Positions 9,493-24,725 of a stretch of 64,000 nucleotides of DNA are shown piece by piece. Source of the stretch: Hyphomicrobium sp. GTDB lineage: Bacteria > Pseudomonadota > Alphaproteobacteria > Rhizobiales > Hyphomicrobiaceae. The stretch lies in contig NZ_DASRYS010000014.1 in NCBI RefSeq assembly GCF_035687085.1, positions 16,840-80,839 on the forward strand. The letters run 5' to 3'. Made by a program: the position numbers and the translations under genes. Each line of letters begins with the position of its first letter. The stretch's first letter is position 1. The notes under the pieces were generated by a model. That model was given only the letters and a program-made list of their open reading frames with translations, was not told the DNA's origin and searched no databases.

Positions 9493-9638
9493 ATTATCTT
9501 CCTCCAACAAATTTCATGCCCAGACAATGATGCTCCGGCATCGGGTACCTTTGTGCTCTGATAGAAGCGGCGCGCCCGAGGAAGGCGCTATCGAAGCGTC
9601 CTTTCCTGCGAGCGCGGTGCTCATCGCTTCCGTCAGTC

Positions 9639-9947: not shown

Positions 9948-9980
9948 GCGGGATCGATCCTTTGAAGTTTGTGCAGAAAA

Positions 9981-10005
9981 AACGGCCTCAAAGATCGCAG
10001 GTTCC
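9981..10005 (-). promoter_or_regulatory. Sigma-EcfG-type promoter (perfect consensus)
   Basis: GGAAC-N16-CGTT, 33 nt upstream of ATG 9947. Confidence 0.75.
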
Positions 10006-10037
10006 CAAACTCATCCGATTAGCAGCGGGGTTCTTCC

Positions 10038-11273: not shown

Positions 11274-11291
11274 GGAACATATCCTTGCGTC

Positions 11292-12212
11292 TCAAGCGGC
11301 CTGCATCGCAGCTGGCTGCGCGATTGCCGCATTGTAGCGGCGGATCATCGATCCGCAGAACTCCGCGAATTCTTCAGCGACTAAAGGCGGGCTCGTGTGA
11401 TGAGGCGCCAAGCCCCGATGCTCGGGCGTAAAGCAGAAGGTCACAGTCACGTTGAAGTCGCTGAGGGCAGCCATCTGCCGGTCGAACCAAGCAAGCGCAT
11501 TTGGCCGGAAACTGTCAGCCCAGGACAACCCGGTGCGTACGTGTTTCACGCCGAGCCGCTTCATCCATACGACTGCATCTTCGAGACGATGATCTTCGTA
11601 GTGGAACCATTGGCAAAGGCCGAGCTCCGGTGTGAGGCTTGCAAATGTTTCCGCAGCCGGTTTCGGCGCGCCGTCCTCGCGCAAAATCCCCATATGGAAA
11701 TGTCGGTAATAGGAGGAGCCCTCGGCTTCCTTGTGCCGTGTCGTTGCTTCCCAGGTCTTGGGAAGATCGTAAAGGCTGTACCAATGGATGCGCTCGGTCA
11801 TGCCACTGAGCAGCTCAGCCGTTCGCTTCAGGCCCCAGTCTTGGACTTCGTCGGCTCCGAAGGACGATACGCCGACCTCAGTGACCCAAAGCGGCAGCTG
11901 GGTTACTGCGCGTATCTCGGCGAGCTTCGCAGGCCATTCGTCGATCGACCATAGATTCCAGTCGAGGGGGAAGCCATGCACCGCCACGACATCGACAGCA
12001 TCGAGGACGCCATAGCGTTCCATGCGGGTGATGAAGTTCGGATCGATCGGCGAGATCCCTCCGAGAACACGCTTCAAATGCGCGCTTTCCCGACGGATCG
12101 CACGCCCTGCGAGGACCGCCGTCTCACCGAAGCGCTGCCACTCAGGATCGAGCTCAGGGTCCCAGTGCGATTTGTTGTTGGGTTCGTTCCAAATCATAGC
12201 GGCTTCGATCAT
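11292..12212 (-). CDS. Clan GH-A glycoside hydrolase (beta-xylosidase-like), apparently circularly permuted
   Basis: WNEP acid/base motif at residues 8-11, AVHGFP, LWVTEVG nucleophile; LGVKHVRTGLSW and FCFTP lie at the C-terminus. Confidence 0.75.
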   Translation of the reverse strand: MIEAAMIWNEPNNKSHWDPELDPEWQRFGETAVLAGRAIRRESAHLKRVLGGISPIDPNFITRMERYGVLDAVDVVAVHGFPLDWNLWSIDEWPAKLAEIRAVTQLPLWVTEVGVSSFGADEVQDWGLKRTAELLSGMTERIHWYSLYDLPKTWEATTRHKEAEGSSYYRHFHMGILREDGAPKPAAETFASLTPELGLCQWFHYEDHRLEDAVVWMKRLGVKHVRTGLSWADSFRPNALAWFDRQMAALSDFNVTVTFCFTPEHRGLAPHHTSPPLVAEEFAEFCGSMIRRYNAAIAQPAAMQAA

Positions 12213-12967
12213 GTGGCACTCCGAGCGGGATACACGGGGGAATGAGCGGCGGGAGCACGCTGACGCCGGCAGATATAGACCTCCTGCTCAGGGTGTTCGA
12301 TGACGTCAAAGCCGGCGCTTCTCAGCATCGCTTCGCTGCATGCATGGTTCGGCACCCACCAATTGGTGGGATCGTTGGCGTAGCTGTGCTCGACGAAGTG
12401 CAGCTTCGGATATCCGGGTTGATCGAAGTGGTCGCTGCGCCAGAAATCGTAGTTAGCTGCCACGGGTTCGACATCGTCGGAGCCCCGCTGCATGGTTTGG
12501 AAAACAAGAATATCGCCTGCCACGTGCTCACGAATGAGATCGAGTGCGAGCAGCGGGTGCCGCAGGTGATAAAGCACACCCATAAAGAGGACGATTTCGA
12601 ACTGACGGCCGAGCCTGGCCACGTCGTAGACCGACAGTCTCTCGAACTCGATGTCCTCGCCCAATGTACGGGCGGCGAGACGCGCCTGAGCGAGATAGCG
12701 ATCGTCGAAGTCGATGCCAACGACTTCCTTTGCGCCGAGCCGCTTCATCTCAATCGAATAGAAGCCGGCATTACAGCCGATATCCAGCACGCTTCGGCCG
12801 CGCACTTGATCTTCAATGGCCGACTTGAAGCGCCGCCATTTTATCGAAGGATAGTCGCCCAGGGGATGATCCGGCGCTGTCTCCACCGCATCCAACTTCA
12901 TATTATGAAACCAAGGCCGGAGAGCCTCCACCTCGTGGCGCAACGCCTCGGGGGATGCGCCATGCAT
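12209..12967 (-). CDS. Class I SAM methyltransferase (TIGR04290-like, CmoB-related)
   Basis: WFHNM.L, VLDIGCNAGFYS, FEIVLFMGVLYHLRHPLLALD, DPTNWWVPN; start overlaps the upstream stop (TGATG). Confidence 0.85.
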   Translation of the reverse strand: MHGASPEALRHEVEALRPWFHNMKLDAVETAPDHPLGDYPSIKWRRFKSAIEDQVRGRSVLDIGCNAGFYSIEMKRLGAKEVVGIDFDDRYLAQARLAARTLGEDIEFERLSVYDVARLGRQFEIVLFMGVLYHLRHPLLALDLIREHVAGDILVFQTMQRGSDDVEPVAANYDFWRSDHFDQPGYPKLHFVEHSYANDPTNWWVPNHACSEAMLRSAGFDVIEHPEQEVYICRRQRAPAAHSPVYPARSAT

Positions 12968-13773
12968 CAGCATGCGTTATCTCTCCTCTCGATGGTCTCG
13001 CTTCTCGCCACTGGCTCGGGAGTTGGAGTTTCGGCCACCGCCTGATCCGTTCCAAGGTGCTTGAGCGCCTCGGTGGCATCGCGATAGCCGCGCGGCGTTC
13101 CAACATCCGCATACGCAGTGCCGATCCGGAAGCCGCGAGCCGTGCCGCCTTGCGCAAGATAAGCATTGATGAGTGTGCCCAGATACTCGTCCTGCCGGTT
13201 GCGTTGGAGCCAGAGCCGATGCAGTTCTTCAAAGACCTTCGCGGAGAGCTTGATCGCCCCCCAAACCCAGTTGGTCTCGGGCACTTCCTGTTTGACCTGA
13301 ATTTCAAGGACGTGCTGCTCGTCATCAAGGACAACGGCGTCAAAGAACTCCGGGTGTATTGAGGGAAATAATATGAATCCCAGCTCACACGGCGGAATGT
13401 CTAGGTATGCCGTTTCGGGGAACCAGATCGTGTCGGGAAGGCCAATGAGCACGTCTTCATGAGGCGCGATAAGCGGCGATGCCCTAAAGAGTGCATCACA
13501 GAGGCCGTTCGGATCCGCCTGGACGGCATAGACGACATCAGCGCTGCCGTAGTGACCACCGAAATATTCAAGGATGTCGGATTTCCCCGAAGAGATAATA
13601 AAGCAGAGCTTCTCTGCGCCACCGATGAGCATGCGCTGGAGGAGATATTCACTCACCGCTAGCGGCCGCTCGGCTCCGCCAGCCATCGAGCTGCCGAGAG
13701 GCAGAAGCTCCTTCGAAAAGCCCAATGGTTGCATACGCGTGCCGCGGCCGGCTGCTGGAATAATTCCCCACAT
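12967..13773 (-). CDS. Sugar-phosphate nucleotidyltransferase
   Basis: IIPAAGRGTRM, SKELLP, Q..PNGLCDA, GLPD, DVGT; 268 aa. Confidence 0.88.
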   Translation of the reverse strand: MWGIIPAAGRGTRMQPLGFSKELLPLGSSMAGGAERPLAVSEYLLQRMLIGGAEKLCFIISSGKSDILEYFGGHYGSADVVYAVQADPNGLCDALFRASPLIAPHEDVLIGLPDTIWFPETAYLDIPPCELGFILFPSIHPEFFDAVVLDDEQHVLEIQVKQEVPETNWVWGAIKLSAKVFEELHRLWLQRNRQDEYLGTLINAYLAQGGTARGFRIGTAYADVGTPRGYRDATEALKHLGTDQAVAETPTPEPVARSETIERRDNAC

Positions 13774-14864
13774 CAGGCAGACTCCGCGAATGCTTGCCGC
13801 TCAAGCGGCGCCTCCCAAAGAATTCGTAAAAGCTCGTCGGCACGATGATCTGACGTATGCGCTGCAAGTGTGCGTTCACGCGCCGCTTCACCAATTCTCG
13901 CAAGTTGCTGATCGGTGGCATCGAGCGCCTCCAGAACGTCCTGCTCGTTACGCACGAGCAGGACTTCGCGCCCTGGCTCATAAAAAGCGCTTATTCCCTC
14001 CCATGCATCTGACAGGATCGCAGTGCCGCACGCGGCAGCTTCGAAGAGCCGCCCGGATGGACACCAACCCGAACGCGCCATCGCCATGCGCGTAACGTTG
14101 AGCGTCAAACGGGATGACGCAAAGAAAGCGGGATGCTCCGTCGGCGGCAAATGGCGCACGAAATATAGATTTGCAAGCCAGGGGAAATTATCTGGATATT
14201 GCGCGCCGCCGATGAGGAAGCGAAGGTCTGTTCTCGCGGCAGCTGGCTTGAGAAATAGTTCCGTGAGTGCCGCCTGACGATCGTGCGCATAGGTTCCGAG
14301 GTACGAGAGATGCGAGCGATATTGGTACATGGCTGGAACCGGCCGATACTGCTTTGGGTCGACGTGCCCGTAGAGCGGGGCCACTCGCCGCGCTCCGAGT
14401 TCGCGCCGTAGCTCATCAAGCGTCTTGCCGCCGGTATAACTCAACACAAGATCGAATTGGGTTAGACCCTGCGGCCCGATATAGTCAACGTTCCGCCCAC
14501 TGCTGATTGCATCCAACGTCACCGGCGTATCGAGATCATAGAAAACAAGGAGGCCGCGAGCGTCTTCGGCCAGTCGCGCAGCGGCTACGGCGTCGGGGCA
14601 GTAGGAGGTAACGAGAATTGCATCCGCTTCAGCAATCTCCTGCTTTGCTTGCGCAAGGACGGTGTCCCAATCGCTGTAGATGACAAGATCACCGTAATCG
14701 ATGCCGGAGATGTCTCGCGAATCCGAATAATAGGGAACGTCACGCTCGAAAAACGTCACGGCGCAATGCCTTCGGTGCAAGGCATCGATCAGCCCACGCC
14801 AAAGTGTTGCATGGCCATTGCCCCACGATGACGACATCGAGAGGCCAAAGATGACAAGTTTCAA
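13773..14864 (-). CDS. CgeB-family glycosyltransferase
   Basis: SSSWGNGHATLWRGL, YDLDTPVT, YLGTYAHDRQ, PSGRLFEAAACG, SDAWEG; TTG start overlaps the upstream TGA. Confidence 0.85.
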   Translation of the reverse strand: MKLVIFGLSMSSSWGNGHATLWRGLIDALHRRHCAVTFFERDVPYYSDSRDISGIDYGDLVIYSDWDTVLAQAKQEIAEADAILVTSYCPDAVAAARLAEDARGLLVFYDLDTPVTLDAISSGRNVDYIGPQGLTQFDLVLSYTGGKTLDELRRELGARRVAPLYGHVDPKQYRPVPAMYQYRSHLSYLGTYAHDRQAALTELFLKPAAARTDLRFLIGGAQYPDNFPWLANLYFVRHLPPTEHPAFFASSRLTLNVTRMAMARSGWCPSGRLFEAAACGTAILSDAWEGISAFYEPGREVLLVRNEQDVLEALDATDQQLARIGEAARERTLAAHTSDHRADELLRILWEAPLERQAFAESA

Positions 14865-15442
14865 GCCGCAATCCTTTGGTCGAGCTCCATCTGGCCTGAA
14901 GGTTCGACCGCGATGGTCGTGATAGATCCGTAGGGCACATCGACGCGATTCCAATCGTCGAGCGGCAGCGACAAACAATGCAGGATGACCGCTCGAATGA
15001 GCTCAGCGTGCGTGACCATGATGATGGGCGCGGATGGATTGTCCGCTGCCGTCCGCCGGATATGATTCAGGATGCGCTCCTGAACCTCCATCATGGATTC
15101 GCCATCCGGCGCCCGCGCATTGGTGCGCTGCTCGTTCCACAGCCTCCAGGCGGGATCTCGGTCCAGAGACGCGAATGTGCGCCCCTGCCAGACGCCAAAG
15201 TCGACTTCGTCAAGTGCCGTGATTTTTGCGGCGATCCGGCCGGTCGCGAAGACATGAGGCGCAATCGTCTGAAGGCAGCGCCGGCGCGGGCTGGACTGCA
15301 GGATCGCATTGCGGGGCAATAGTCGCGTGAGGCTTGCCGCCTGCTTTTCGCCGCCTGCCGAGAGCGTGCATTCGGACCGGCCCGCCAAGTGGCGCATGCC
15401 GAAGTCAAACGCCGCATGCCGCACGAGGAAGCATACTGCCAT
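14861..15442 (-). CDS. Histidine phosphatase family protein
   Basis: LVRHA, SSPRRRCLQT, LDEVDFGVWQG, GES, VTHAELIR; 193 aa. Confidence 0.85.
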   Translation of the reverse strand: MAVCFLVRHAAFDFGMRHLAGRSECTLSAGGEKQAASLTRLLPRNAILQSSPRRRCLQTIAPHVFATGRIAAKITALDEVDFGVWQGRTFASLDRDPAWRLWNEQRTNARAPDGESMMEVQERILNHIRRTAADNPSAPIIMVTHAELIRAVILHCLSLPLDDWNRVDVPYGSITTIAVEPSGQMELDQRIAA

Positions 15443-15452
15443 GCTTTCTCCT

Positions 15453-16547
15453 TTAGGCGTCGCCCGCGACGAACTGCAAAGTGCGCTCGCGAGCCTCGCA
15501 ATCTTCGAACTGCTGCGGCGGAGACTTCATGAAGTAACTTGAGGGGCCGATGAGAGGACCTCCAATTCCCCGCTCCAGGGCTAGCTTCGCGCAGCGAACA
15601 GCATCAATCACAACCCCCGCAGAATTTGGCGAATCCCATACCTCGAGCTTTACCTCCGCGCTCAAAGGAACGCCGCCGAATGCCGTTCCCTCTAGCCGGA
15701 TGTAGGCAATCTTGCGATCAGTGAGCCATGGTACGTGATCGCTCGGACCGACATGTACATTCTCAGGCGCCGGTGGATCCTCGATCAGAGACGTTACTGC
15801 GCGGGTCTTCGATAGTTTCTTCGACTCAAGGCGCTCGCGCTCGAGCATATTCATGAAATCGGAGTTGCCTCCAAAGTTCAGCTGATACGTACGATCGAGC
15901 TGCACGCCGCGGTCACGAAAGAGGCTCGCGAGCGCCCGGTGGACGATTGTCGCTCCTACTTGGCTTTTGATGTCGTCGCCAATGAGCGGAATCCCGCGCT
16001 CGGTGAATTTCGCGGCCCAGCGGGGGTCTGAAGCAATGAAGACTGGTATGCAGTTGATGAACGCGCATCCGGCCGCCAACGATTGTTCGGCATAATATTC
16101 AGTCGCTCGCTGCGAGCCCACCGGCAAATATGAAACTAGGACATGGGTGCCGGTTTCCTCGAGCACCTCAGCCACCGTCACCGGCTCTTCGCAGGATTCC
16201 GGAATTTGGTCTTTTAGATATTTTCCAAGGCCATCGAATGTCGGGCCTCGCCGAACGCTGCAGCCTAGCTGCGGAACGGCCGCAAACTTCATAGTGTTGT
16301 TCGGCGCGACAGCAATTGCATCGGAAACGTCCTTGCCAACTTTGCCGGCGTGCACATCGAATGCGCTGGAAATTACGATGTCAGCAACGCTAACGCCTCC
16401 AATGTCAGCACTCATCAGACCCGGCATCGGCGTATTCCCGACATTGCTGCCGTAGTAAGTCAGGCCCTGGACGAATGAGGAGGCGCAATTGCCGACGCCG
16501 ACCAAACCGACGCGCACAGATCTTGATGAGGAGCAGTCTTTTGGCAT
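15453..16547 (-). CDS. ino1: Inositol-3-phosphate synthase
   Basis: [59 protein letters not shown]; 364 aa. Confidence 0.93.
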
Positions 16548-16585
16548 CGATCACTCAAGACCAGGCACAGACTTCACAAGGTACA

Positions 16586-16610
16586 AACAATGGCTTTCTG
16601 GGTTGGTTCC
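16586..16610 (-). promoter_or_regulatory. Sigma-EcfG-type promoter for the ino1-to-deoB unit
   Basis: GGAAC-N16-TGTT, 38 nt upstream of ATG 16547. Confidence 0.6.
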
Positions 16611-16625
16611 TCCGCATTGCGATAT

Positions 16626-16650
16626 GGAACTGAGGTTAGGCCGCGAGGTT
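16626..16650 (+). promoter_or_regulatory. Sigma-EcfG-type promoter for the divergent three-gene unit
   Basis: GGAAC-N16-GGTT, 36 nt upstream of ATG 16687. Confidence 0.6.
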
Positions 16651-16686
16651 CATCGCAAGATCCATTCAGTTGGAGGAGCATCGAAC

Positions 16687-16959
16687 ATGAGCGCATCTAG
16701 CGAGAAGACCACCGATCACAAGAAAATCCGGAAATGGATAGAGGAGCGCGATGGTCATCCTGCCGTCGTGAAAAGTACGGAAAGCGACGAGGGCGGCGTC
16801 CTGCGCGTGGATTTTCAAGAGCCTGATGAATCTCTCGAGGAGATCTCTTGGGATCGCTTTTTCGATATTTTCGATTCGAGGAAGCTGGCATTCCTTTACC
16901 AAGACACCTTGTCTGACGGTAAAAAGAGCCGGTTCAATAAATTTGTCTCCCGCGATTGA
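16687..16959 (+). CDS. Small conserved-looking hypothetical protein (90 aa)
   Basis: RBS GGAGGAG; TTDHKKIRKWIEERDGHPA, LRVDF, EEISWDRFF..F, LAFLYQD, SRFNKFVSR. Confidence 0.75.
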   Translation: MSASSEKTTDHKKIRKWIEERDGHPAVVKSTESDEGGVLRVDFQEPDESLEEISWDRFFDIFDSRKLAFLYQDTLSDGKKSRFNKFVSRD

Positions 16960-17022
16960 GAGCGAGTAGGTGCGCTTTGTTGCGCCGTTCGCCTGAAAGA
17001 TCCTCTTACGGATCGTATCTGG

Positions 17023-18702
17023 ATGATCGTTTATGGCGATGGACATGTTCGCCTCACCGTTTCCGATGTCGCGGAAATACTGCATAAGCGGCTGAGCGCA
17101 CCGGCAAAGCCCTCTCTTCATGAGCTGCGGATCCGGTGCGCGATCGCGGGCCAGCTGGAACAGTCGGCGATCGACTCTTCGTCTAACTGGGCACCTGAAG
17201 CCGAAGCGCTCAGCATGCTCTGCGGTCACGCCTTTGCTGCGCGCGTTCTCGGCATTTCTTGGCCCAATAGCTACTCTCCTGAAGGCTGGGACCAAGCAGC
17301 CGGGATCCTCTTTGCAATCTCTTCCCGCGCAAAATCTGAGCGGCCCACCGATCCGATGAAAATTCCGGAGGGCTTTGCCTGGTACGCCGTTTACCCGGAT
17401 GCGTACGTCCAGGCTGCGCTCGCATGGGCTCGCACTGCGCGAACGCCGAGTTCTGTTACCGTCATCGGATTGCGGAGCATCGGCACGACTTTGTCCGGCG
17501 TCGTTGCGGCAGCGCTTCGCTCGCGCGGCTTTGCCGTTAACCGCATCACCGTGAGGCCAAAGGGCGATCCCTATCGCCGCCACGTGAGCCTTCCACCGGA
17601 ACTTCCTATCAACGCTGCTGCTCTCGTCGTCGACGAAGGCCCTGGCCGCTCCGGATCATCGATGGCTGCGACGGCGGATGCGCTTATTCGGCATGGCTTT
17701 GATCGAAACGCCATTGTCTTTTTACCTGCGCACACGAACGGGCCGGGTGGCGAAGTTTCAGCTTCTGTTGAGCAGTGGTGGCGGCAGACTGCAATTCACG
17801 TCGGCGGCTCCATCAGACCCGGCAAGCATCATCATTGCGACTGCATTGAAATGGGCGGCGGTCTTTGGATGCGGCGCGCGGGCGTCTCGGCGGATGACGT
17901 CCATGCTGCAGCTCCGATGCTCGAGGCTCCCAAGTTCATCACGGAAAATGGGACCTGTACGATCCTCTGGAAGTTCTCGGGCTTCACACTCGCGCCAAAT
18001 CGAAATGCCACGCTTAGCGAGGACACATCGCATAAGCTAACGTGGCTCGCTGACCACGGGTTGGTTCCTCGCCCTAAGTCCTGTGAAGATGGGTGGATCG
18101 GAACGCCTTGGGTCGATGGCCCTCGCCTAGCTTTGGGTCGTCTCACCGCCCTCGATGTCTTACAGGCCTGCAATTACATTCGTGCCGCTGCAGATCCTCC
18201 GCTCGAGTTCGCAGAGGCAGAAGCTGATCATAAACGGCTTGCAGATTTGCTTATCGAAAATGCGAAAGAGTTGTGCCCATCGGCAATCACTTCGGCGCAG
18301 CGAGCGGCCGATACACTCCTTTACGATGCGCGCCTTCACGATCTTCCAAGTTACGGCGACGGGCGCCTCGCGCCGCATGAATGGGCGCGAATGCCAACCG
18401 GCGAACTGCTGAAGCTCGACGCCGGCGGACACTCTTGTGATCACACTGCGATCGGTCCCCAAACCATTCTCTGGGACGTCGCCGGCTTGATGGTCGAATG
18501 GAACATGCACTCTCGCATCGCGGGCGATCTGCTTGATGCGTTCAAACTTAGCGCAGATCTCGAAAAAGCACTCGCGTGCTACGTCGCTGCATATGCGGCC
18601 TTTCGGGCTGGCGTCGCCACGCTCTGCGGCGCGCACGAGAGCAAGCAGCGGGCGATCGCTTACTACACCGCGCACCTCAAATCTGCCCTCACCGCGATAT
18701 GA
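17023..18702 (+). CDS. Hypothetical protein: PRTase-like domain fused to an APH/choline-kinase-like C-terminal domain
   Basis: 559-aa ORF. ALVVDEGPGRSGSSM matches the type I PRTase PRPP loop. LWKF, WVDG, DGRLAPHEW, LKLD and DVAG appear in kinase-fold order. Confidence 0.7.
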   Translation: MIVYGDGHVRLTVSDVAEILHKRLSAPAKPSLHELRIRCAIAGQLEQSAIDSSSNWAPEAEALSMLCGHAFAARVLGISWPNSYSPEGWDQAAGILFAISSRAKSERPTDPMKIPEGFAWYAVYPDAYVQAALAWARTARTPSSVTVIGLRSIGTTLSGVVAAALRSRGFAVNRITVRPKGDPYRRHVSLPPELPINAAALVVDEGPGRSGSSMAATADALIRHGFDRNAIVFLPAHTNGPGGEVSASVEQWWRQTAIHVGGSIRPGKHHHCDCIEMGGGLWMRRAGVSADDVHAAAPMLEAPKFITENGTCTILWKFSGFTLAPNRNATLSEDTSHKLTWLADHGLVPRPKSCEDGWIGTPWVDGPRLALGRLTALDVLQACNYIRAAADPPLEFAEAEADHKRLADLLIENAKELCPSAITSAQRAADTLLYDARLHDLPSYGDGRLAPHEWARMPTGELLKLDAGGHSCDHTAIGPQTILWDVAGLMVEWNMHSRIAGDLLDAFKLSADLEKALACYVAAYAAFRAGVATLCGAHESKQRAIAYYTAHLKSALTAI

Positions 18703-18713
18703 GAGGGGCCTCC

Positions 18714-19202
18714 ATGAAGTCGTCCCCGCCGAAGCTCTACATTTTCGATGTAGACGGCACGCTGCGGTGGACTCATACGCCCGGGCATCGCTTCCCTTTA
18801 TCATCCGCAGATTGGAGCTTAATGCCGAACGTCGCCGATACGTTGCGGGCAATTCCCTGGTCGACTCACGGTCCCTGGATTGCGCTGGCCTCCAATCAGC
18901 CGGGGCCTAGCGAAGGGTTGCTTACAGAAGCCAAGGCGCGCGACATGCTAGTTGCCACATTGCACGCAGCCGTCGGATTCCTTCCGCCGAGGGCTTGGAT
19001 TCAAATGTGCACATGTATGCCGGATGCGAGTTGCGCCCGCCACAAACCCAATCCTGGGATGCTGTCCGACGCGCTGCACCACTTCAATGTTTGCGGTTCC
19101 GACGCGCTCTTCGTCGGCGACCAGCCGATCGACGCAGAAGCGGCGCGGCGTGCCCGAATACCATTCTTGAGTGCCGCCGACTACTTTGGCTGGTGCTTAT
19201 AA
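18714..19202 (+). CDS. HAD-superfamily phosphatase (GmhB/HisB-N-like)
   Basis: FDVDGTL, ASNQ, C.C...C.RHKP.PGM, GDQPID; 162 aa. Confidence 0.85.
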   Translation: MKSSPPKLYIFDVDGTLRWTHTPGHRFPLSSADWSLMPNVADTLRAIPWSTHGPWIALASNQPGPSEGLLTEAKARDMLVATLHAAVGFLPPRAWIQMCTCMPDASCARHKPNPGMLSDALHHFNVCGSDALFVGDQPIDAEAARRARIPFLSAADYFGWCL

Positions 19203-20234
19203 AGCCGCCTCCTCGCCCGCACCGTTCAGCCCTCTTAAGGCCATCGCGGGAACCAATGTATTGACGCGATCCCATTCATGCCGCGTGGAGGCGAACCATT
19301 CGATGGTTTTGGTGAGGCCTTTGCGCAGCGGGACTTTCGGCGCCCATTCGAGCAATTCCTTGGCAAGTGCAATGTCAGGCTTGCGCCGGCGCGGATCGTC
19401 CACGGGCAGCGACTTATAAACGATCCGCGACGGCGAACCCGTGAGTTCTAGAACCGTTTGCACAAGCTCGCTCACGGTAATCTCGCTCGGGTTTCCGAGA
19501 TTAACAGGTGTGCGCACCGGGCTTGAATGAAATCCGAGCGCCAACAATCCTGATACGAGATCATCGAGATAGCAGAACGATCGGGTTTGGCTTCCGTCGC
19601 CGTATATCGAAATGTCGCTTCCCGACAGCGCCTGAGTGACCACATTGGAAACGACCCGGCCATCATCGGCGCGCATGCGAGGACCGTATGTGTTGAAAAT
19701 CCTAGCGACGCGGCAATCGACTTTGGCTGCGCGCATATAGTCGAAGGAAAGCGTTTCAGCTGCGCGTTTTCCTTCGTCGTAGCATGCGCGCGGCCCGATT
19801 GGATTGACGTTGCCGCAGTAGTCTTCCTTCTGCGGATGACGCAGCGGGTCACCATAAATCTCACTCGTCGATGCGAGCACGAACCGGGCCCCGAGATCGG
19901 ATGCCAGTGCTAGAAGGTTCCGTGTGCCCACGACGCTGGTCATCATCGTGTGAACCGGATCCGCTTGATAATGTGGAGGAGACGCGGCACAGGCGAGATT
20001 GAAAATCACATCGGCCCGAAGCGCCAAGGGCAATGGATCGATGATGTCCGCGTTGACGAGCCGAAAATTCGCCTCTCCGGCCAAATGTTTGAGATTGTCG
20101 GGCCGCCCACTCTGAAAGTTGTCTACGCCCACCACGTGGAAGCCGCGGCGGATGAGTGCATCGCAGAGATGCGATCCAATGAACCCGGCGGCACCGGCCA
20201 CAATAGCGTTCCGCATTTCGGCCTGTCTTGCCAT
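19197..20234 (-). CDS. UDP-glucuronate decarboxylase (UDP-xylose synthase)
   Basis: GAAGFIGSHL, LACAASPPHYQ, STSEIYGDP, YDEGKR, RIFNTYGPRM, DGRVVSN, QTRSFCY. Confidence 0.88.
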   Translation of the reverse strand: MARQAEMRNAIVAGAAGFIGSHLCDALIRRGFHVVGVDNFQSGRPDNLKHLAGEANFRLVNADIIDPLPLALRADVIFNLACAASPPHYQADPVHTMMTSVVGTRNLLALASDLGARFVLASTSEIYGDPLRHPQKEDYCGNVNPIGPRACYDEGKRAAETLSFDYMRAAKVDCRVARIFNTYGPRMRADDGRVVSNVVTQALSGSDISIYGDGSQTRSFCYLDDLVSGLLALGFHSSPVRTPVNLGNPSEITVSELVQTVLELTGSPSRIVYKSLPVDDPRRRKPDIALAKELLEWAPKVPLRKGLTKTIEWFASTRHEWDRVNTLVPAMALRGLNGAGEEAAL

Positions 20235-20252
20235 TCTCAAATCTCCACAAAC

Positions 20253-21380
20253 TCACGCCTGGTCCACTGAGGTCAGCTTTCCTTTTTGGTCCATCTTGGC
20301 GCGACTTTCATCGCGGCCACCGTCTGCAAACCAGTTTTCCAGTTCTATGGCACGCCAGTCTGAAGTGTGTTCAAGCAGCACCCGCTCTCTTGCCGCTTCG
20401 CCAATGCGGCGGCGATCTTCCGCGGGCATCTGCAGCACCCCCGTCACATGTTCGCTGCTCTCTGCAGTGACGATCTCCTGATCGGGAACGAAGAAGGCTT
20501 CCAGACCCGGCCAGTCGTCCGAGATTATGGGCGTCTCGCATGCGGCGGCCTCGAAGAGGCGGACACTTGGACTGAAGCCCGCTGTCCTCATATCTGCGCG
20601 GGTCAAATTCAGCGCCCATCCAAGGCTCGAATAAAATTCGGCGTGCTTTGACGGAGGCACGTGCTCAATTCGCTCCACGTTTTCCGGCCAGCGGATCGAG
20701 CTTGGATATTGCGCGCCAGCGACCACGAACGTCATTTCCGGCAGCTGGCGCGCAACTTCGTTTATGAAGCGCTCAACTCCGGGCTGACGGTCCGCACTGT
20801 AGGTTCCGATATATCCAAGATCCCAGCGCTTGCGCGTGAGCTGTGGCTTGTAGATTGTCGTATCGACAGAGCAATAGAGAGCGAGCGCCGACCGAGCGCG
20901 CCATTTATCGACCAGAAGCTTGAGCGTTGGTCCACCGGTGAATGAGAAGTAGCAGGCGTATTGCCGAACTTGTGCGGGCGACAAGTACGTGCAGGTGCCC
21001 CGGGCAAGAGCGCTCAAGGTGACAGGCGTGTCGATGTCGTAGAACGCGATCTTGCCGCGGGCGACGCGGAACACCCAATCCGCAACTGCGATCCCGTCCG
21101 GCACGAACGAGCCGATGATCACCAAGTCCGCCGAGGCGATCTCCCTCTTCCAATCCTCTAAGCCCGCCAGGCCATCGTAGAAGTGGAGTTCGCAGCACGC
21201 GGGTCCGATCAGGTCTCGGTTGGCGGCGTACCACGGGACATCGCGCTCCAGGAACATTACACGATGACCGCGATCCGATAGGCTGCGAATGAGCGCGCGA
21301 TAGGTGGTGGCATGGCCATTCCCCCAAGCGGACGAAAGGCTCAATCCCAAGATGACGATGCGCAAAGAACGCCTCTTCAT
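20253..21380 (-). CDS. CgeB-family glycosyltransferase
   Basis: SSAWGNGHATTYRAL, YDIDTPVT, YIGTYSADRQ, PSVRLFEAAAC; 375 aa. Confidence 0.85.
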   Translation of the reverse strand: MKRRSLRIVILGLSLSSAWGNGHATTYRALIRSLSDRGHRVMFLERDVPWYAANRDLIGPACCELHFYDGLAGLEDWKREIASADLVIIGSFVPDGIAVADWVFRVARGKIAFYDIDTPVTLSALARGTCTYLSPAQVRQYACYFSFTGGPTLKLLVDKWRARSALALYCSVDTTIYKPQLTRKRWDLGYIGTYSADRQPGVERFINEVARQLPEMTFVVAGAQYPSSIRWPENVERIEHVPPSKHAEFYSSLGWALNLTRADMRTAGFSPSVRLFEAAACETPIISDDWPGLEAFFVPDQEIVTAESSEHVTGVLQMPAEDRRRIGEAARERVLLEHTSDWRAIELENWFADGGRDESRAKMDQKGKLTSVDQA

Positions 21381-22471
21381 GCCACCGCCTGCTGATCTTT
21401 CGCCGCAACCAATTCGCTCAGGACGCGGTCCACAATCTGTGCCCTCTGATTATACGTATGTTCGCGAAGAACGCGCCTTCTTGCTCCTTCCCCGATCTGC
21501 CGCGCACGTTGCGGCGTGAGCGATGCCAGCGCTCTCGCGACATCGCGAGCGTCATTGATGACGATCACTTCTTCACCTGGCGTCAGAAATTCTGAGATGC
21601 CCTCCCAGCCGTCCGTCATCAGGCATGCACCTGCTCCTGCAGCTTCGAACACGCGCGTTGCAGGAGAGAACCCTGTGGTTGCCATCGATTTGCGTGAAAT
21701 GTTGATCACAGCGAGCGGCGAGCAATTGAACGCGTTGTGATCCCGAGTCGAGAGGTGTCCGATGAATTCGACATTCGGAGGCAGTTGCCATGGCTCCCAG
21801 CCCGATCCTGCTAGAAGGAATTTGCGGTGAGGCAGAAGGCGTGCGGCCTCGAAGAAGAACGCATCGACGCGCGCTTCGCGATCTGGCAGGCGATTGCCAA
21901 GAAATGCGAGATCGGCGGTGAAGCGCGACTGCGGCGCGACTGGAAAGTGCGTCTCAGGGTCGAGCGCGTTATAAATCGGCACACACCGGCGCGCGCCAAC
22001 ACGCCGATAGGCTTCGACGACCGGGGATCCGCCGCCATAGGTCAAGACGCAGTCCAAACGCTTCAACGCGGCGCGAAGCGGGTGCCGCGTGTCGCCATCG
22101 ATCTCCGCCAGGGTTGCCGGTGCGTCGACGTCCCAGAAAATTCCGAGCTTTCCCTTCGCGGCTTCGGCGACCGTGGCTGCAAGGATCTCATTATCAAGTG
22201 CGCCGACGCCGCTTGCTTTGACGATAATGTCGGCGCCGGCTGCGTGCCGGAAGGCTGCCTGCATCGCCTCAACTGTTGGCTCATAGACAACGACCTCGGC
22301 CCAATCCGGCGGGTCCATGTCGCGGTGCTGTTGGCGGTCAAAGGCATCCGGCTCATAGAACGTGATGCGATAGCCTTGCCGTGCAAGGGCGGCGATGATT
22401 CCACGGTAGTACGTCGCGGCGCCGTTCCAATAGCTCGACAGCAGGCTGGAACCGAAGAACGCAATGTGCAT
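21377..22471 (-). CDS. CgeB-family glycosyltransferase
   Basis: SSYWNGAATYYRGI, WDVDAPAT, FLGNRLPDRE, PATRVFEAAGAG; start MHIAFFG coupled to the upstream stop. Confidence 0.85.
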   Translation of the reverse strand: MHIAFFGSSLLSSYWNGAATYYRGIIAALARQGYRITFYEPDAFDRQQHRDMDPPDWAEVVVYEPTVEAMQAAFRHAAGADIIVKASGVGALDNEILAATVAEAAKGKLGIFWDVDAPATLAEIDGDTRHPLRAALKRLDCVLTYGGGSPVVEAYRRVGARRCVPIYNALDPETHFPVAPQSRFTADLAFLGNRLPDREARVDAFFFEAARLLPHRKFLLAGSGWEPWQLPPNVEFIGHLSTRDHNAFNCSPLAVINISRKSMATTGFSPATRVFEAAGAGACLMTDGWEGISEFLTPGEEVIVINDARDVARALASLTPQRARQIGEGARRRVLREHTYNQRAQIVDRVLSELVAAKDQQAVA

Positions 22472-23589
22472 CAGGCTGCTCCCTTCAACCGGGGCCGGAT
22501 CTGCTCCGCGATGGCGAGAAGCTCGCTGGCACGGTGAGCGCACGTGTGCTTATTTCTGATGGTCTCCAGGCCGTTGGCGGCAAGCTCGCGCCGCAGGCCG
22601 GCATCGTTCGCAAGGGCGCGCATGGCGCTCGCCATATCCGTCTCACTTGAAGCCGTAAGGAAGTCCTCGCCCGCGCGGAACAGGTTTTCAGAATCTTCCC
22701 ATGGTGCGCAGACGAGCGGCAAACCGCAGGCCAGCGCTTCGAAGACGCGGATGGTCGGAATGCCAGGAAGAAACTTCACGTAATAGCGTCTTGGCACATG
22801 AACGGTGAAAAGGTGCCGCGCGAATATCTCCGGAACCCGATCGTTCGCACTCCAACCGTGATATTCGGCGCCATGCGCGTGCAGAGCTTCGATGGCCTCA
22901 TCGGGATATCGCACCCCATGCACGTCAAGCTTGACCTGCGCATCGCGTGCCGGCCGCAATAGGTAGGCGCCAAGCTCCTCACTGCGTTCTCCATCGCCCC
23001 AGTTGCCGATCCATACGGCCCCTGAGCGCATCTGGTTCTCGTTTCTATCAGGCGATGTGGCAAGGCGAACGTCGGCTGCTTCATGAAAGACGAAGACGCG
23101 ATTGCCCCAACCCGCGCGTGCATAGACGTCGGCAAGTGATTGCCCGAAGGCGAGCACGCCGTCGTAGCCCGACAAGTCCATCTTGTTGATAGCGCGAGGA
23201 TCGCTTACTGCCCGGTGATGCGTGTCATGAAAAAGAAGCGTGAACGCCGCGCCGCGCTTTTTCTTGTCACCGAGCGCCGTCACTATCTCAGGCGCTGTCC
23301 ACTCGTGCACGATGACGAGATCCGCGTCCGCGATTGCAGGTAGGATGTCCATCGAAGAGTCATAGGTTGCAATCGCACCAGCCAGGTCGGGAAACCGAGC
23401 CGCAAATCGCGAGAGAGTTCCTGGACCCTGCTCCGCTTCGAGATTTTCTCGGCTCCAACTCCTTTCAGGCTCGAGGGCAAGCACATCGTGGCCGCGGCCG
23501 GCGAGTTCGCGGAGCAAACCGCGCAGGAAATGCGCGTTTCCGTGGTTCCAACAAGAAACAAGCGAATGCGTGAGATAGACGATCCTCAT
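22471..23589 (-). CDS. CgeB-family glycosyltransferase
   Basis: VSCWNHGNAHFLRGL, HDTHHRA, WIGNWGDGERS, PTIRVFEALACG; 372 aa. Confidence 0.85.
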   Translation of the reverse strand: MRIVYLTHSLVSCWNHGNAHFLRGLLRELAGRGHDVLALEPERSWSRENLEAEQGPGTLSRFAARFPDLAGAIATYDSSMDILPAIADADLVIVHEWTAPEIVTALGDKKKRGAAFTLLFHDTHHRAVSDPRAINKMDLSGYDGVLAFGQSLADVYARAGWGNRVFVFHEAADVRLATSPDRNENQMRSGAVWIGNWGDGERSEELGAYLLRPARDAQVKLDVHGVRYPDEAIEALHAHGAEYHGWSANDRVPEIFARHLFTVHVPRRYYVKFLPGIPTIRVFEALACGLPLVCAPWEDSENLFRAGEDFLTASSETDMASAMRALANDAGLRRELAANGLETIRNKHTCAHRASELLAIAEQIRPRLKGAA

Positions 23590-24725
23590 GCGCCGGCCTC
23601 CAGCTGAACAAGCGGTGGTGCGCGCGCGGCGAGGACGCGTGAGTAAATGTTCATCGTCTCTGCGCCCATGCGCTCGGCTGAATAGGCTCGCGATCTCTCG
23701 GCAGCGGCTGCCGCGAGCACCGCACGCTCATCCGGCGACGCCATGAGACGTAAAATGGTCTCCGCGAGTTCGGCAGGATCGTCGGGATCTATGAAGAGCG
23801 CAGCGCCATCCCAGAGCTCGCGAAAGGTCGAAATGTCGGACAAAACGAGGGCTACGCCGGCTTGAGCGGCCTCGAGCACCGCGAGGCCAAAGGGCTCATA
23901 TTTCGACATGCTGACGAACACCGCGGCGCGCCGGTACCATTCCTGCATCTCGTCATGAGCTAGCGCGCCAAGCAGGGAAAGATGCGAGAGATCGGCCGTC
24001 TCGCCGTTGGGCCCGTTTTGCGGCCCAGCCGCATAGATCTTTCTTCCGCTGAGCCTTGCGGCTTCACCAACCACCCGAAGGTTTTTTCCGGCATCCCACA
24101 GACGGCCGGCCGTGAACACAACATCCGCTCTGTTGATCGGCGCTGTCGCAGGAGAAAGCGTTCGTCCATTATGGACAGCCGTGATGGGCGTGACCGCACC
24201 GTACAGCGCAGCCAAGTCACGCGCGAATGACGCGCTCGGCGCTATGACCGCATCGGCCAAGGTCAATCCGACTCCAGTTCTTCGCGCGCGCCAGGCGAGA
24301 TCCGGCGGCATCGCACCTTTTCCAGCGTGCGCCCACCACGTTCCAACGCAGGAGTGAGCAGAAATGGTCAAAGGCACATCCCACTCCTTCAATCCGGCTT
24401 GAGCTGGCGCATTGAGGTGAACGATATCGGCGCTCCACTCGCGGGCGCGATCCTGCAGCTCGGCGGCGGTGACATCGAGTTCGCCTTCTGACGCCGCTGT
24501 CCAGTCGAGCGGCAAACGACTGACCTCGAGCGACGCGGCACCCGCGCGTCGTGCCGCCTTCTCTTGCAACCGGCTGGGCGGGGGACCGAGAACGCAAATC
24601 CGCACTTCGACATCGTTGCCGCTCAGATAGTTCGTGAGTTCCAACGCGTAGGTCCAAACTCCGCCCACGGTGTCCGAAGTCATGAAGACGCGTTTCGGCA
24701 ACGGCGTGCGGGAGTTCAGCGGCAC
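23586..24725 (-). CDS. Glycosyltransferase family 4
   Basis: DTVGGVWTY, AGRLWDAGKN, YEPFGLAVLEAA (EX7E), SDISTFRELW; 379 aa. Confidence 0.88.
   Translation of the reverse strand: MPLNSRTPLPKRVFMTSDTVGGVWTYALELTNYLSGNDVEVRICVLGPPPSRLQEKAARRAGAASLEVSRLPLDWTAASEGELDVTAAELQDRAREWSADIVHLNAPAQAGLKEWDVPLTISAHSCVGTWWAHAGKGAMPPDLAWRARRTGVGLTLADAVIAPSASFARDLAALYGAVTPITAVHNGRTLSPATAPINRADVVFTAGRLWDAGKNLRVVGEAARLSGRKIYAAGPQNGPNGETADLSHLSLLGALAHDEMQEWYRRAAVFVSMSKYEPFGLAVLEAAQAGVALVLSDISTFRELWDGAALFIDPDDPAELAETILRLMASPDERAVLAAAAAERSRAYSAERMGAETMNIYSRVLAARAPPLVQLEAGA

Follow-up and report, generated by a model that had tools for sequence, protein, structure and literature searches.

PRPP-dependent O-ribosylation, followed by the action of a HAD phosphatase, has been described for the Bcs3 CriT/CrpP pair (PMC10299916) and for gPRT/PRP pairs (PMC11127046). 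In these systems, Ribf-5-P is transferred from PRPP and the product is then dephosphorylated at the 5 position. BtrL and BtrP of butirosin, ribostamycin and neomycin synthesis operate in the same order, with PRPP-dependent O-ribosylation of a cyclitol-containing pseudo-oligosaccharide preceding the action of a dedicated phosphatase (PMC13707489). A different arrangement, comprising HldE, GmhB and a nucleotidyltransferase, serves ADP- or GDP-heptose activation.

A locus that can be compared with each of these systems resides in a 64,000-nucleotide stretch of DNA from Hyphomicrobium sp. (hereafter the window). Its central gene encodes a PRTase-like/kinase-like protein (hereafter the fusion protein) that combines two well-understood folds in a fixed and, to our knowledge, previously undescribed architecture. 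The genes and promoter-like sites of the locus are as follows.

14861..15442, minus strand: His_Phos_1 phosphatase (Pfam/NCBIfam), context gene
15453..16547, minus strand: inositol-3-phosphate synthase, Ino1 (PF01658, E 1e-34; TIGR03450, E 4e-153), context gene
16586-16610, minus strand: mirror GGAAC-N17-GTT site preceding Ino1 (motif scan)
16626..16650, plus strand: GGAAC-N17-GTT promoter-like site upstream of the unit formed by the small ORF, the fusion gene and the HAD gene (motif scan)
16687..16959, plus strand: 90-aa ORF, first gene of this unit, with a GGAGGAG ribosome-binding site
17023..18702, plus strand: fusion protein, 559 aa, PRTase-like/kinase-like
18699..19202, plus strand: HAD-IIIA (GmhB-like) phosphatase (Pfam HAD_2/PNK3P; TIGR01662 above cut-off)

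The CriT/CrpP and gPRT/PRP systems (PMC10299916, PMC11127046) resemble this locus in that a PRTase-like core is flanked by helical bundles and has a HAD-family phosphatase as its partner. However, the pairing with a HAD phosphatase is found in the window and five other loci and is absent beside most members of the fusion family. The HAD protein is of the capless type IIIA (GmhB-like), in contrast to the capped PRP domain of gPRT systems, and the fusion protein carries a kinase-like domain in a locus that lacks export or polymerase machinery. The two acidic ribose ligands of CriT are located on different loops (D680, E818), whereas those of the fusion protein are vicinal, which is the classical PRTase arrangement. 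Neither the 50 top-ranked Foldseek PDB matches of the two models of the fusion protein nor PDB searches by sequence or profile at E <= 10 contained a Bcs3 or gPRT chain.

The likeness drawn here to BtrL/BtrP is one of pathway logic; the cluster around the fusion gene lacks aminotransferases, and its distribution across many phyla is unlike that of an antibiotic pathway. As in the heptose activation loci, a kinase-type domain, a GmhB-like HAD-IIIA protein and an NTP_transferase occur together. In this case, the HldE kinase has a ribokinase/PfkB fold rather than the APH fold, the fusion protein has an additional predicted PRPP-type site, and the NTP_transferase is not consistently linked to it.

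Architecture and conservation of the fusion protein

The first-pass annotation had reported a 559-aa ORF bearing a series of motifs. The frame at 17023..18702 (+) is indeed open and every quoted string can be located in it: VIGLRSIGTTLSGVVAAAL at residues 147-165, VRPKGDPY at 177-184, ALVVDEGPGRSGSSM at 200-214, ILWKF at 314-318, GTPWVDG at 360-366, DGRLAPHEW at 446-454, LLKLD at 462-466 and WDVAG at 484-488. The start codon can be considered fixed because homologues retain the N-terminus M-[IL]-V-Y-G-D.

More than 468 homologues were recovered by homology search, the family comprises 2,880 representatives at 50% identity (about 2,900 clusters), and relatives were confirmed in at least 575 stretches of species-representative genomes. 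Members occur in Chloroflexota, Verrucomicrobiota, Acidobacteriota, Armatimonadota, Gemmatimonadota, Proteobacteria and Myxococcota, and the named homologues are all annotated as 'hypothetical protein'. Searches with the single protein gave no match in Pfam (E <= 0.1) or NCBIfam, and PDB sequence searches with the single protein or a 60-sequence profile yielded nothing useful. The two-domain architecture is fixed, with the kinase-like domain found only in fusion with the PRTase-like module and never free. Candidate fusions to further domains were set aside, as the long stop-to-stop frames proved mostly to be GC-rich read-through; among these long frames, only one (L068) carries a methyltransferase in frame. 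A PADLOC match of the N-terminal helices to CARF_m4 (15.8 bits) was regarded as noise, and a defence-system reading was ruled out by genomic context and PADLOC.

Conservation within the family is far beyond chance. In a set of 82 sequences drawn from at least eight phyla, the PRPP-loop decapeptide and three Arg residues (R151, R178 and R186) are identical in all 82. The domains and conserved elements are listed below, each on the plus strand.

17023..17442, plus strand: N-terminal helical bundle, residues 1-140 (AF2 models, conservation)
17443..17808, plus strand: predicted type I PRTase-like alpha/beta core, residues 141-262 (Foldseek, hhalign, conservation)
17467-17487, plus strand: predicted PPi-loop, G149-R151-S-I-G154-T155
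17554-17580, plus strand: predicted flexible loop, R178-P-x-G-x-P-x-x-R186
17632-17661, plus strand: predicted PRPP loop, D204-E-G-P-G-x-S-G-S-S213
17809..17904, plus strand: linker, residues 263-294, of lower AF2 confidence, with G280 and W282 conserved
17905..18702, plus strand: predicted bilobal domain of choline-kinase/APH-like type, active site non-canonical, residues 295-559 (Foldseek, hhalign)
17971-17973, plus strand: K317, the beta3 Lys
18358-18384, plus strand: catalytic-type loop, D446-G-R448-L-A-P451-H-E453-W (conservation)
18412-18444, plus strand: K464-x-D466-x3-H470-x2-D473-H474 (conservation)
18472-18501, plus strand: W484-D-x-A-G-x3-E-W493 (conservation)

An AF2 model of the entire protein (pLDDT 90.9, pTM 0.91) depicts a single rigid body. 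Its N-terminal bundle comprises helices at residues 13-24, 32-51, 57-76 and 86-105, in which G43, E46, D51, E116, G117, Y121 and P125 of the bundle region are invariant or nearly so, and Foldseek gave no specific structural match for it. For an AF2 model of residues 1-268 (pLDDT 91), PRTases make up the majority of the 50 highest-ranking PDB matches (Foldseek prob 0.96-1.00, E 3e-3 to 2e-2, TM(target) 0.36-0.52). These include UPRT, HGPRT, APRT, OPRT, XGPRT and PyrR, and the whole model retrieves PRTases as well. Alignments by hhalign against single sequences were too weak, and family profiles from sampled genomes were used instead. The middle region aligned in the same register with an APRT profile (P 0.0024) and a UPRT profile (P 7e-4), such that GIRSIG corresponds to GIEARG/ILRAG, VRPxG to VRKKG, and VVDEGPGxSGSS to VDDLIATGGT. 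Both AF2 and Foldseek recover a PRTase alpha/beta core, and on these models the middle domain is a PRTase-like fold.

As in type I PRTases (UPRT, APRT, HGPRT, OPRT, PyrR; PF00156/PF14681), the predicted domain has a five-stranded alpha/beta core with an Arg loop after strand 1 and a basic flexible hairpin, as well as a hydrophobic strand, two acidic residues, a Ser/Gly-rich phosphate loop and a helix. However, the protein itself falls below the Pfam threshold for PF00156 (no match at E <= 0.1). Weak PF00156 matches were obtained for 4 of 60 homologues (best E 0.007), and a PF00156 scan of the genome found six other genes but not this one. HMMs built from its domains and searched against all ORFs of its own genome did not reach the APRT, HPRT, OPRT, Prs or APH genes. 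The loop A-L-V-V-D-E-G-P-G-R-S-G-S-S is 100% conserved among the 82 sequences and aligns to the APRT/UPRT loops, but departs from the classical signature (PROSITE PS00103), in which the second acidic position is Asp and a hydrophobic residue follows. Here D-E precedes G-P-G, and D-E-G-P-G-x-S-G-S-S takes the place of D-D, hydrophobic residues and T-G-G-T. The protein is also without the nucleobase hood of type I PRTases, has an extra 140-aa N-terminal bundle and a 265-aa kinase-like domain, and is encoded in a context of glycan synthesis rather than nucleotide metabolism.

For the C-terminal domain, the best Foldseek match is LicA (4r77; E 7e-7, TM(target) 0.57 over 279 columns), with further matches to HSK (2ppq), the ethanolamine, glucosamine, NahK and MTR kinases, and APH(3'). 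An hhalign comparison with a LicA-like profile (Prob 94%, E 1e-7) also recovers the bilobal kinase fold, and by these models the C-terminus is choline-kinase/APH-like. Features held in common with choline/ethanolamine kinase, homoserine kinase II, APH and sugar kinases include the bilobal fold of about 280 residues, K317 as the conserved beta3 Lys, a P-x-[N/E]-hydrophobic turn that precedes beta7, an Asp that follows beta8, and a W-D-x-A-G ... E-W helix equivalent to the D-[LV]-A motif. No family match to PF01633 or PF01636 was obtained with Pfam or NCBIfam, and a PF01636 scan of the genome matched six other genes and missed this one.

The active site differs from that of the superfamily in that the family consensus D-G-[R/H/K]-x-x-P-H-E replaces H-x-D-x-x-P-x-N, the alpha-C Glu is not conserved among the 82 sequences, and a 7-residue insert contributes H470, D473 and H474. 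An ungapped profile alignment places R448 on the catalytic Asp position and E453 on the Asn position, and the Brenner motif H-x-D-x4-N with its catalytic Asp is absent from this alignment. Residue 448 is Arg in 59, His in 16 and Lys in 6 of the 82 sequences, and is thus basic in 81. An alternative register, with a 2-residue insertion that would put the invariant D446 at the catalytic Asp position, is conceivable. K317 and D466/D473 are retained, with K317 replaced by Arg in 6 of the 82 sequences. This systematic rewriting of the catalytic loop makes it likely that the protein performs new chemistry or employs the kinase fold in a new way, and the conserved kinase-like site (K317, D446, E453, K464, D466) suggests a second chemistry beyond the phosphoribosylation model discussed below.

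Structure prediction and Foldseek, in agreement with profile-profile alignment, thus bear out both fold assignments that had been guessed from motifs. The placement of Arg at the canonical catalytic Asp position also holds in the ungapped register. For the middle domain, the proposed type I PRTase fold stands, but the PRPP loop is non-canonical and PF00156 is not reached.

The HAD phosphatase and the inositol/glycosyltransferase cluster

The HAD gene begins either at ATG 18699, overlapping the stop codon of the fusion gene as ATGA, or at ATG 18714, located 11 nt downstream of the fusion gene. The solved structures closest to its product are 3l8h and the D,D-heptose 1,7-bisphosphate phosphatase 4pnh. 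A HAD-IIIA gene lies immediately 3' of the fusion gene and on the same strand in six loci (the window and five others) from Alphaproteobacteria, Gammaproteobacteria and Gemmatimonadota. In two of these six, no other cluster genes are present: one pair resides among TonB-receptor/MCP/FolD genes and the other among GlgX genes. GmhB removes the distal phosphate from a sugar bisphosphate, and phosphatases of this type act on substrates that carry both an anomeric and a distal phosphate. The HAD protein is probably a partner that dephosphorylates the product of the fusion protein. The adjacency is found in only 6 of 83 loci, and therefore most fusion genes have no dedicated neighbouring phosphatase.

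Among solved structures, glucosyl-3-phosphoglycerate phosphatase is the closest to the upstream His phosphatase, which points to dephosphorylation of a glycosyl-inositol-phosphate and not of a phosphoribosyl product; this enzyme probably serves the Ino1 branch. The genes for Ino1 and the His phosphatase also occur side by side in clusters that lack the fusion gene (in genomes G108 and G050), and therefore neither is a specific partner. Ino1 is a frequent neighbour of the fusion gene, which also occurs far from Ino1. The first-pass annotation was correct that a HAD phosphatase follows (Pfam, with TIGR01662 above cut-off) and that the His phosphatase and Ino1 are divergently adjacent, both upstream on the minus strand with profile matches. 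Its broader pairing of a PRTase with phosphatases is retained for the HAD protein, given the six loci and the two unrelated surroundings, but not for the His phosphatase and Ino1.

The fusion gene travels with a cluster marked by TIGR04290 and TIGR04295, which score 373 bits (cut-off 300) and 681 bits (cut-off 400) in the window and which we take to be the cluster named 'rhizo-twelve'. TIGR04290 is above cut-off in 16 of 20 genomes with the fusion gene versus 0 of 14 control genomes, and the 16 include all 10 Acidobacteria genomes, where the fusion gene is unlinked. In a sample of 151 genomes of the order, TIGR04290 occurs in 10 and the fusion gene in 4, all of them among those 10 (hypergeometric ~1e-5). 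The fusion gene is missing from the other 6, and some clusters contain Ino1 and the His phosphatase but no fusion gene; thus it is an optional, accessory component.

The widespread, conserved, cytoplasmic cluster comprises inositol, glycosyltransferase, B12-radical-SAM and methyltransferase gene types, together with an NTP_transferase and a phosphopentomutase-like gene. A sister cluster without the fusion gene has a mycothiol/aminoglycoside-like set of Ino1, GT4, PIG-L deacetylase and GNAT genes. No dedicated partner of the fusion gene was found inside the cluster: a GH-like gene, the His phosphatase and a methyltransferase are frequent neighbours, yet occur without it. Acidobacterial synteny was likewise set aside as a clue, the SH3-domain neighbour being lineage-specific and uninformative. 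Literature searches on TIGR04295, TIGR04290, Rta_06860 and 'rhizo-twelve' found no paper, and a search on cluster content returned nothing relevant.

Candidate functions of the fusion protein

Starting from the two folds and their invariant residues, together with the HAD operon and the genome-level linkage to the cluster, we infer a donor (PRPP), an acceptor, an order of steps and a role for the kinase-like domain. Our leading proposal, which we hold tentatively and rate at somewhat below an even chance, is that the fusion protein catalyses PRPP-dependent phosphoribosylation of a pathway glycoside, which the HAD protein then dephosphorylates. The fusion protein would be a cytoplasmic tailoring enzyme of the TIGR04290/TIGR04295 cluster, and its optional presence fits this role because tailoring steps are expected to be optional. 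Its central domain would bind PRPP as type I PRTases do, with the pyrophosphate held by R151, R178 and R186, the ribose hydroxyls held via Mg by D204 and E205, and the 5-phosphate held by S210-S213. An inositol glycoside or inositol(-phosphate) formed as an intermediate of the pathway would accept the 5-phosphoribosyl group on one of its hydroxyls, and the GmhB-like HAD-IIIA protein, presumably made from the same transcript, would remove the 5-phosphate to leave a ribofuranosyl decoration. The rigidly packed N-terminal bundle and kinase-like domain would replace the nucleobase hood and would bind and present the acceptor. The D-G-[R/H/K]-x-x-P-H-E loop and the H470/D473/H474 insert could form a binding site or a second catalytic site that may accommodate an anionic phosphorylated group. 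Counting against the proposal are the failure of the protein to reach PF00156, hhalign P values of only about 1e-3 and Foldseek TM values of about 0.4-0.5 for the PRTase matches, the non-canonical PRPP loop, the small share of loci with an adjacent HAD gene, and the conserved kinase-like site, which the proposal does not explain. If the fusion protein does ribosylate, PRPP-dependent O-ribosylation, so far known for capsules, O-antigens and aminoglycosides, would extend to soluble metabolites of soil bacteria, and knowledge of its function would open an entry to the pathway of the cluster.

We also consider, as a rather doubtful possibility, a composite active site. In this arrangement, the pseudokinase, its catalytic Asp exchanged for Arg/His/Lys, would bind an anionic phospho-acceptor (such as Ins-3-P or a glycosyl-inositol phosphate) and present it to PRPP on the PRTase core, and no phosphorylation would occur; the reaction would yield either a soluble 5-phosphoribosyl phosphodiester or an O-riboside. 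If true, the protein would represent a new class of enzymes, in which a PRTase has recruited a pseudokinase to serve as the acceptor module, and would offer a first chemical way into a bacterial inositol glycoside pathway that is widespread and stress-linked.

A PRTase fold can also bind ribose 5-phosphate (PRPP synthetase) or act as a sensor (PyrR, PurR), a further point against the leading proposal. Sugar activation as in ADP-heptose synthesis, which we regard as unlikely but as meriting attention, would have the PRTase-like domain only hold ribose 5-phosphate, and ribose 1,5-bisphosphate or PRPP would arise through phosphorylation of the anomeric position, or of a 1-phosphate, by the kinase-like domain; the HAD protein would remove the 5-phosphate, and the NTP_transferase would then supply an NDP-pentose for a glycosyltransferase. 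The kinship of the HAD protein with GmhB, the anomeric sugar kinases (NahK, MTR kinase) and glucosamine kinase among the structural matches, and the NTP_transferase and phosphopentomutase-like genes are all consistent with such a route. Moreover, K317, E453, D466 and D473 could bind ATP-Mg, and a basic residue 448 would match an anionic acceptor, for example a 1-phosphate. However, the canonical catalytic Asp is out of register, the alpha-C Glu is not conserved and K317 is not strictly retained. An NTP_transferase is located within 10 kb of the fusion gene in only 10 of 83 loci and also occurs in clusters lacking that gene; the phosphopentomutase-like gene would make the route redundant. In addition, the invariant R151, R178 and R186 fit pyrophosphate better than bare ribose 5-phosphate, and the genome already encodes a standard PRPP synthetase.

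The basic residue 448, which has the conserved K464, H470 and H474 in its vicinity, would also suit phosphoribosyl transfer to a phosphate oxygen, for which DPPR synthase and Rv3807c provide a precedent (PMC11127046). By this improbable route, the kinase-like domain would bind the phosphate of inositol 3-phosphate or another phospho-intermediate, which would attack C1 of PRPP to form a phosphodiester, X-P-ribose-5-P (where X is the acceptor moiety), a soluble analogue of decaprenyl-phospho-ribose-5-P; the HAD protein would trim this to X-P-ribose. The anomeric and distal phosphates of GmhB-type substrates and the frequent adjacency of Ino1 agree with this scheme. Yet it is pure inference, and the fusion gene is also found far from Ino1. 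We know of no soluble enzyme that performs such a transfer. Loss of the kinase catalytic-loop signature could instead indicate that the fusion protein is non-catalytic, a PRPP- or nucleotide-sensing pseudoenzyme that combines a PyrR/PurR-like module with a pseudokinase to tune the cluster pathway to metabolic or stress state. PyrR is among the structural matches, the gene is optional for the cluster and often unlinked, and stress-type promoter-like sites lie upstream. We nevertheless judge a regulatory role to be very improbable, because the extreme invariance of both pockets (about 40 invariant or near-invariant polar residues) and the operon with a phosphatase are typical of enzymes and not of sensors; furthermore, the protein has no DNA- or RNA-binding or output domain.

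Promoter-like sites and the upstream small ORF

The GGAAC-N17-GTT motif, which we take to be a general-stress/EcfG-type consensus, occurs at 10 putative sites in the window versus 2.9 +/- 1.8 expected, and none of 100 shuffles reached 10. The TIGR04290/TIGR04295 cluster may be stress-induced. The 90-aa ORF that begins the putative transcription unit of the fusion gene has no Pfam or PADLOC match, and in four genomes of the order its homologues are neighbours of the cluster.

Folds and family of the fusion protein

The open frame at 17023-18702 (+) encodes a 559-aa protein in which all eight motifs quoted by the first-pass annotation are found, in the order claimed. An identical N-terminal M-[IL]-V-Y-G-D, shared by homologues across many phyla, makes its start codon secure. 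The AlphaFold2 model of the full protein, which used a 60-sequence alignment, predicts a single rigid body rather than beads on a string (pLDDT 90.9, pTM 0.91). When searched against the PDB with Foldseek, the C-terminal half matches the choline kinase LicA (E 7e-7, TM 0.57, 279 columns), with further matches to homoserine kinase II, ethanolamine kinase, glucosamine kinase, NahK, MTR kinase and APH(3'), and the middle of the protein matches UPRT, HGPRT, APRT, OPRT and PyrR. Residues 1-268 modelled alone, using 57 sequences cut from the fetched loci, reach a pLDDT of 91.2, and PRTases make up most of their top 50 Foldseek matches (E 3e-3 to 2e-2, TM about 0.4-0.5). The N-terminal 140 residues are modelled as a helical bundle for which Foldseek found no specific structural match in the PDB.

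Profile-profile comparison with family profiles made from sampled genomes aligned the kinase-like slice with a LicA-like family (94% probability, E 1e-7), and the PRTase slice with APRT (P 0.0024) and UPRT (P 7e-4). The latter two alignments share one register, in which the strand-1 loop G-[IL]-R151-S-I-G corresponds to G-I-E-A-R-G / I-L-R-A-G, V-R178-P-x-G to V-R-K-K-G, and V-V-D204-E-G-P-G-x-S-G-S-S to V-D-D-L-I-A-T-G-G-T. Because the structure matches are joined by two profile alignments in the same register, the earlier proposal that the middle region is PRTase-like is well supported as a predicted fold and distant relationship, which is not the same as membership of PF00156. The APH/choline-kinase-like character proposed for the C-terminal region is likewise borne out by the LicA match and profile alignment.

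Neither the single protein nor its 60-sequence profile matched Pfam, NCBIfam or PDB sequences. A word-indexed search returned 468 relatives, every named one of which is 'hypothetical', and an exhaustive HMM search covering 1.84 billion representatives yielded 2,880 clusters (50% identity) at E <= 1e-3, of which 1,591 reach E <= 1e-30. Among the best 150 of these 2,880 matches, almost all span most of the profile, and thus the three-part architecture is fixed. Relatives were confirmed in at least 575 stretches of a one-genome-per-species scan, and occur in Chloroflexota, Verrucomicrobiota, Acidobacteriota, Armatimonadota, Abditibacteriota, Gemmatimonadota, Planctomycetota, Bacteroidota, Myxococcota (Sorangium), and Alpha- and Gammaproteobacteria. 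The family is real, large and uniform.

Predicted active sites

Conservation was counted over 82 non-redundant sequences. The most conserved stretch of the protein lies in the PRTase part, where G149, R151, G154, R178, P179, R186, D204, E205, G206, P207, G208, S210, G211, S212 and S213 are invariant (82/82). These residues would meet the needs of a PRPP site: the three Arg would hold pyrophosphate, the vicinal acidic pair would serve ribose-Mg and the Ser/Gly loop would take the 5-phosphate.

Within the kinase-like domain, D446 (82/82) and W454 (82) are invariant, and K464 (81), H474 (80), P451 and E453 (79 each), D466 (77), H470 (76) and D473 (73) are kept in most sequences; W484-D-x-A-G...E-W is nearly invariant. 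Position 317 is Lys in 76 sequences and Arg in 6, position 448 is Arg in 59, His in 16 and Lys in 6, and the alpha-C Glu is not conserved (Glu 32, Asp 16). A 7-residue insert carrying H470, D473 and H474 comes after the Asp that follows strand 8. AlphaFold2 places P451-E453 in a helical turn and W454-R456 in a strand.

It had been claimed that the usual HGD is changed to DGR, so that Arg occupies the canonical catalytic Asp position. A profile alignment that takes the P-x-N-hydrophobic turn and strand 7 as its anchors agrees: within H-x-D-x4-N, the His is matched by D446, the catalytic Asp by R448 and the Asn by E453 (posterior about 0.5-0.8 in this stretch). An alternative register with a two-residue insertion, for which a beta-bridge at S443 and an upstream h-h-x-D pattern speak, fits about as well; the catalytic Asp would then be matched by the invariant D446, and the Lys of the protein-kinase motif H-R-D-L-K-P-E-N by R448. 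In either register the loop is non-canonical, and since its pattern holds throughout the family, the site is rebuilt rather than decayed.

The phosphatase partner and a candidate reaction

Directly downstream of the fusion gene lies one further gene:

ATG 18699 (ATGA overlap with the stop of the fusion gene) or ATG 18714, +: HAD-IIIA (GmhB-like) phosphatase

The alternative start at 18714 stands behind GAGAGGGG. When all neighbouring ORFs were searched with an iterated HMM, a HAD-IIIA gene was found directly 3' of the fusion gene, on the same strand, at six loci: the window, a metagenomic relative, two Gemmatimonadaceae, one gammaproteobacterium and Rubellimicrobium. At the last two, tblastn found no other gene of the window cluster within 10 kb. 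One has a TonB receptor, an OmpA-like protein, an MCP and FolD nearby, and the other a class IV aminotransferase, GlgX and a GlmU-like nucleotidyltransferase. Because the pair is kept amid unrelated genes, it moves as a unit. In a Gemmatimonadaceae MAG (L068, about 9100-11900), a TIGR04290-like methyltransferase frame reaches the fusion frame without a stop codon, representing either a methyltransferase fusion or tightly abutting genes; the HAD gene follows here too.

The reading with the best support, still a tentative one, is a two-step PRPP-dependent ribosylation. The PRTase-type site would pass 5-phosphoribosyl to an acceptor from the cluster's pathway, either an inositol glycoside or inositol(-phosphate), and the HAD phosphatase would then take off the 5-phosphate. 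Both folds and this ribosylation-then-phosphatase logic are already known. The Hib capsule polymerase domains CriT, a PRTase-like core between helical bundles, and CrpP operate by two-step ribosylation (PMC10299916), and transfer is likewise followed by dephosphorylation for the gPRT/PRP ribofuranosyltransferases of O-antigens (PMC11127046) and BtrL/BtrP of aminoglycosides (PMC13707489). Unlike all three, the fusion protein retains the vicinal acidic pair of classical PRTases, bears a kinase-like domain and has a capless GmhB-like HAD as its partner; in a further difference from CriT/CrpP, Bcs3 is not among its best PDB matches. What is new is the fixed PRTase-kinase fusion, the rewriting of its kinase loop, how large this wholly unnamed family is, and its tie to an uncharacterised inositol-glycoside cluster.

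Among solved structures, the HAD partner is nearest to GmhB, whose members take the distal phosphate off a sugar bisphosphate. An ADP-heptose-like activation, in which the kinase would form a bisphosphate for the GmhB-like phosphatase and a nucleotidyltransferase would act last, we consider unlikely. Less probable again is that a phosphate oxygen receives the phosphoribosyl group while the kinase cleft, with its Arg, binds the phospho-acceptor. A sensor or pseudoenzyme is the least probable of these, and the remaining probability belongs to something else.

The surrounding cluster and its distribution

The window carries the following features around the fusion gene.

10038-28196: extent of the cluster
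10038-11273, -: phosphopentomutase-like Metalloenzyme-superfamily gene (PF01676, E 4e-38), ending the Ino1-side operon
11292-12212, -: GH-like TIM-barrel protein, 306 aa (weak Glyco_hydro_cc match, E 0.002)
Divergent, upstream of the fusion gene: His_Phos_1 phosphatase and inositol-3-phosphate synthase (Ino1), by family matches
16687-16959, +: small ORF upstream of the fusion gene, 90 aa, with a strong GGAGGAG ribosome-binding site
Within the cluster: TIGR04290 methyltransferase (373 bits, cut-off 300)
Within the cluster: TIGR04295 B12/radical-SAM protein (681 bits, cut-off 400)
Within the cluster: NTP_transferase, four Glyco_trans_1_2 proteins, one GT4, three SDR epimerase/dehydratases
16586-16610 (-) and 16626-16650 (+); also 2275, 3455, 6611, 7358, 9981, 40582, 55704 and 56969: GGAAC-N16/17-GTT sites

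The TIGR04295 cluster presumably corresponds to 'rhizo-twelve'. The GH-like protein has WNEPN and VTEVG motifs, as would suit a barrel of clan GH-A. For the His phosphatase the closest relative is glucosyl-3-phosphoglycerate phosphatase, in keeping with a common scheme in which a phospho-acceptor, here inositol phosphate, is glycosylated and then dephosphorylated.

The same gene set surrounds the fusion gene in a metagenomic relative, and a partial set does so in Chloroflexia and another phylum. Across 83 loci, the most frequent neighbour within 10 kb is the GH-like gene (30), with the His phosphatase at 27, the methyltransferase at 22 and Glyco_trans_1_2 genes at 16-17. TIGR04290 scores above its cut-off in 16 of 20 genomes with the fusion gene versus 0 of 14 controls. 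Among 151 genomes of the window's order, 10 carry TIGR04290 and 4 the fusion gene, and each of the 4 falls within those 10 (hypergeometric about 1e-5). Both are missing from a genome sampled in the same genus, and the cluster is thus patchily distributed, which suggests horizontal spread.

Six of the ten TIGR04290 genomes of the order lack the fusion gene, which is therefore an optional module of the system. Ino1 can still adjoin the His phosphatase in such genomes (G108, G050), so these two, divergent neighbours of the fusion gene in the window, are not private partners of the fusion protein. One such variant is as follows.

G108:C1:3127000-3166999 (L096/L097): Ino1, His phosphatase, Glyco_trans_1_2, NTP_transferase, TIGR04290, GH-like, PIG-L deacetylase, GT4, GNAT (Acetyltransf_6), a second methyltransferase and a phosphopentomutase-like gene

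Its deacetylase, GT4 and GNAT resemble the GlcN-inositol set of mycothiol, an addition that supports an inositol glycoside with variable tailoring as the cluster product. The phosphopentomutase-like gene recurs in this variant, and pentose phosphate therefore seems to enter the pathway independently of the fusion protein.

In Acidobacteria the fusion gene lies apart from the cluster, and all 10 such genomes tested, which are among the 16 above, have a TIGR04290 gene elsewhere. At 31 acidobacterial loci with the unlinked gene, a conserved 389-aa protein with bacterial SH3 domains precedes it on the same strand (for example, L036 8234-9403).

The 90-aa ORF has no family in Pfam or PADLOC; homologues sharing 52-61% identity border the same cluster in four further genomes of the order. 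The GGAAC-N16/17-GTT sites, which we take to resemble the alphaproteobacterial general-stress (EcfG) promoter, number 10 in the window versus 2.9 expected, a count that no shuffle attains, and two form a back-to-back pair in the divergent region that separates Ino1 from the unit formed by the small ORF, the fusion gene and the HAD gene.
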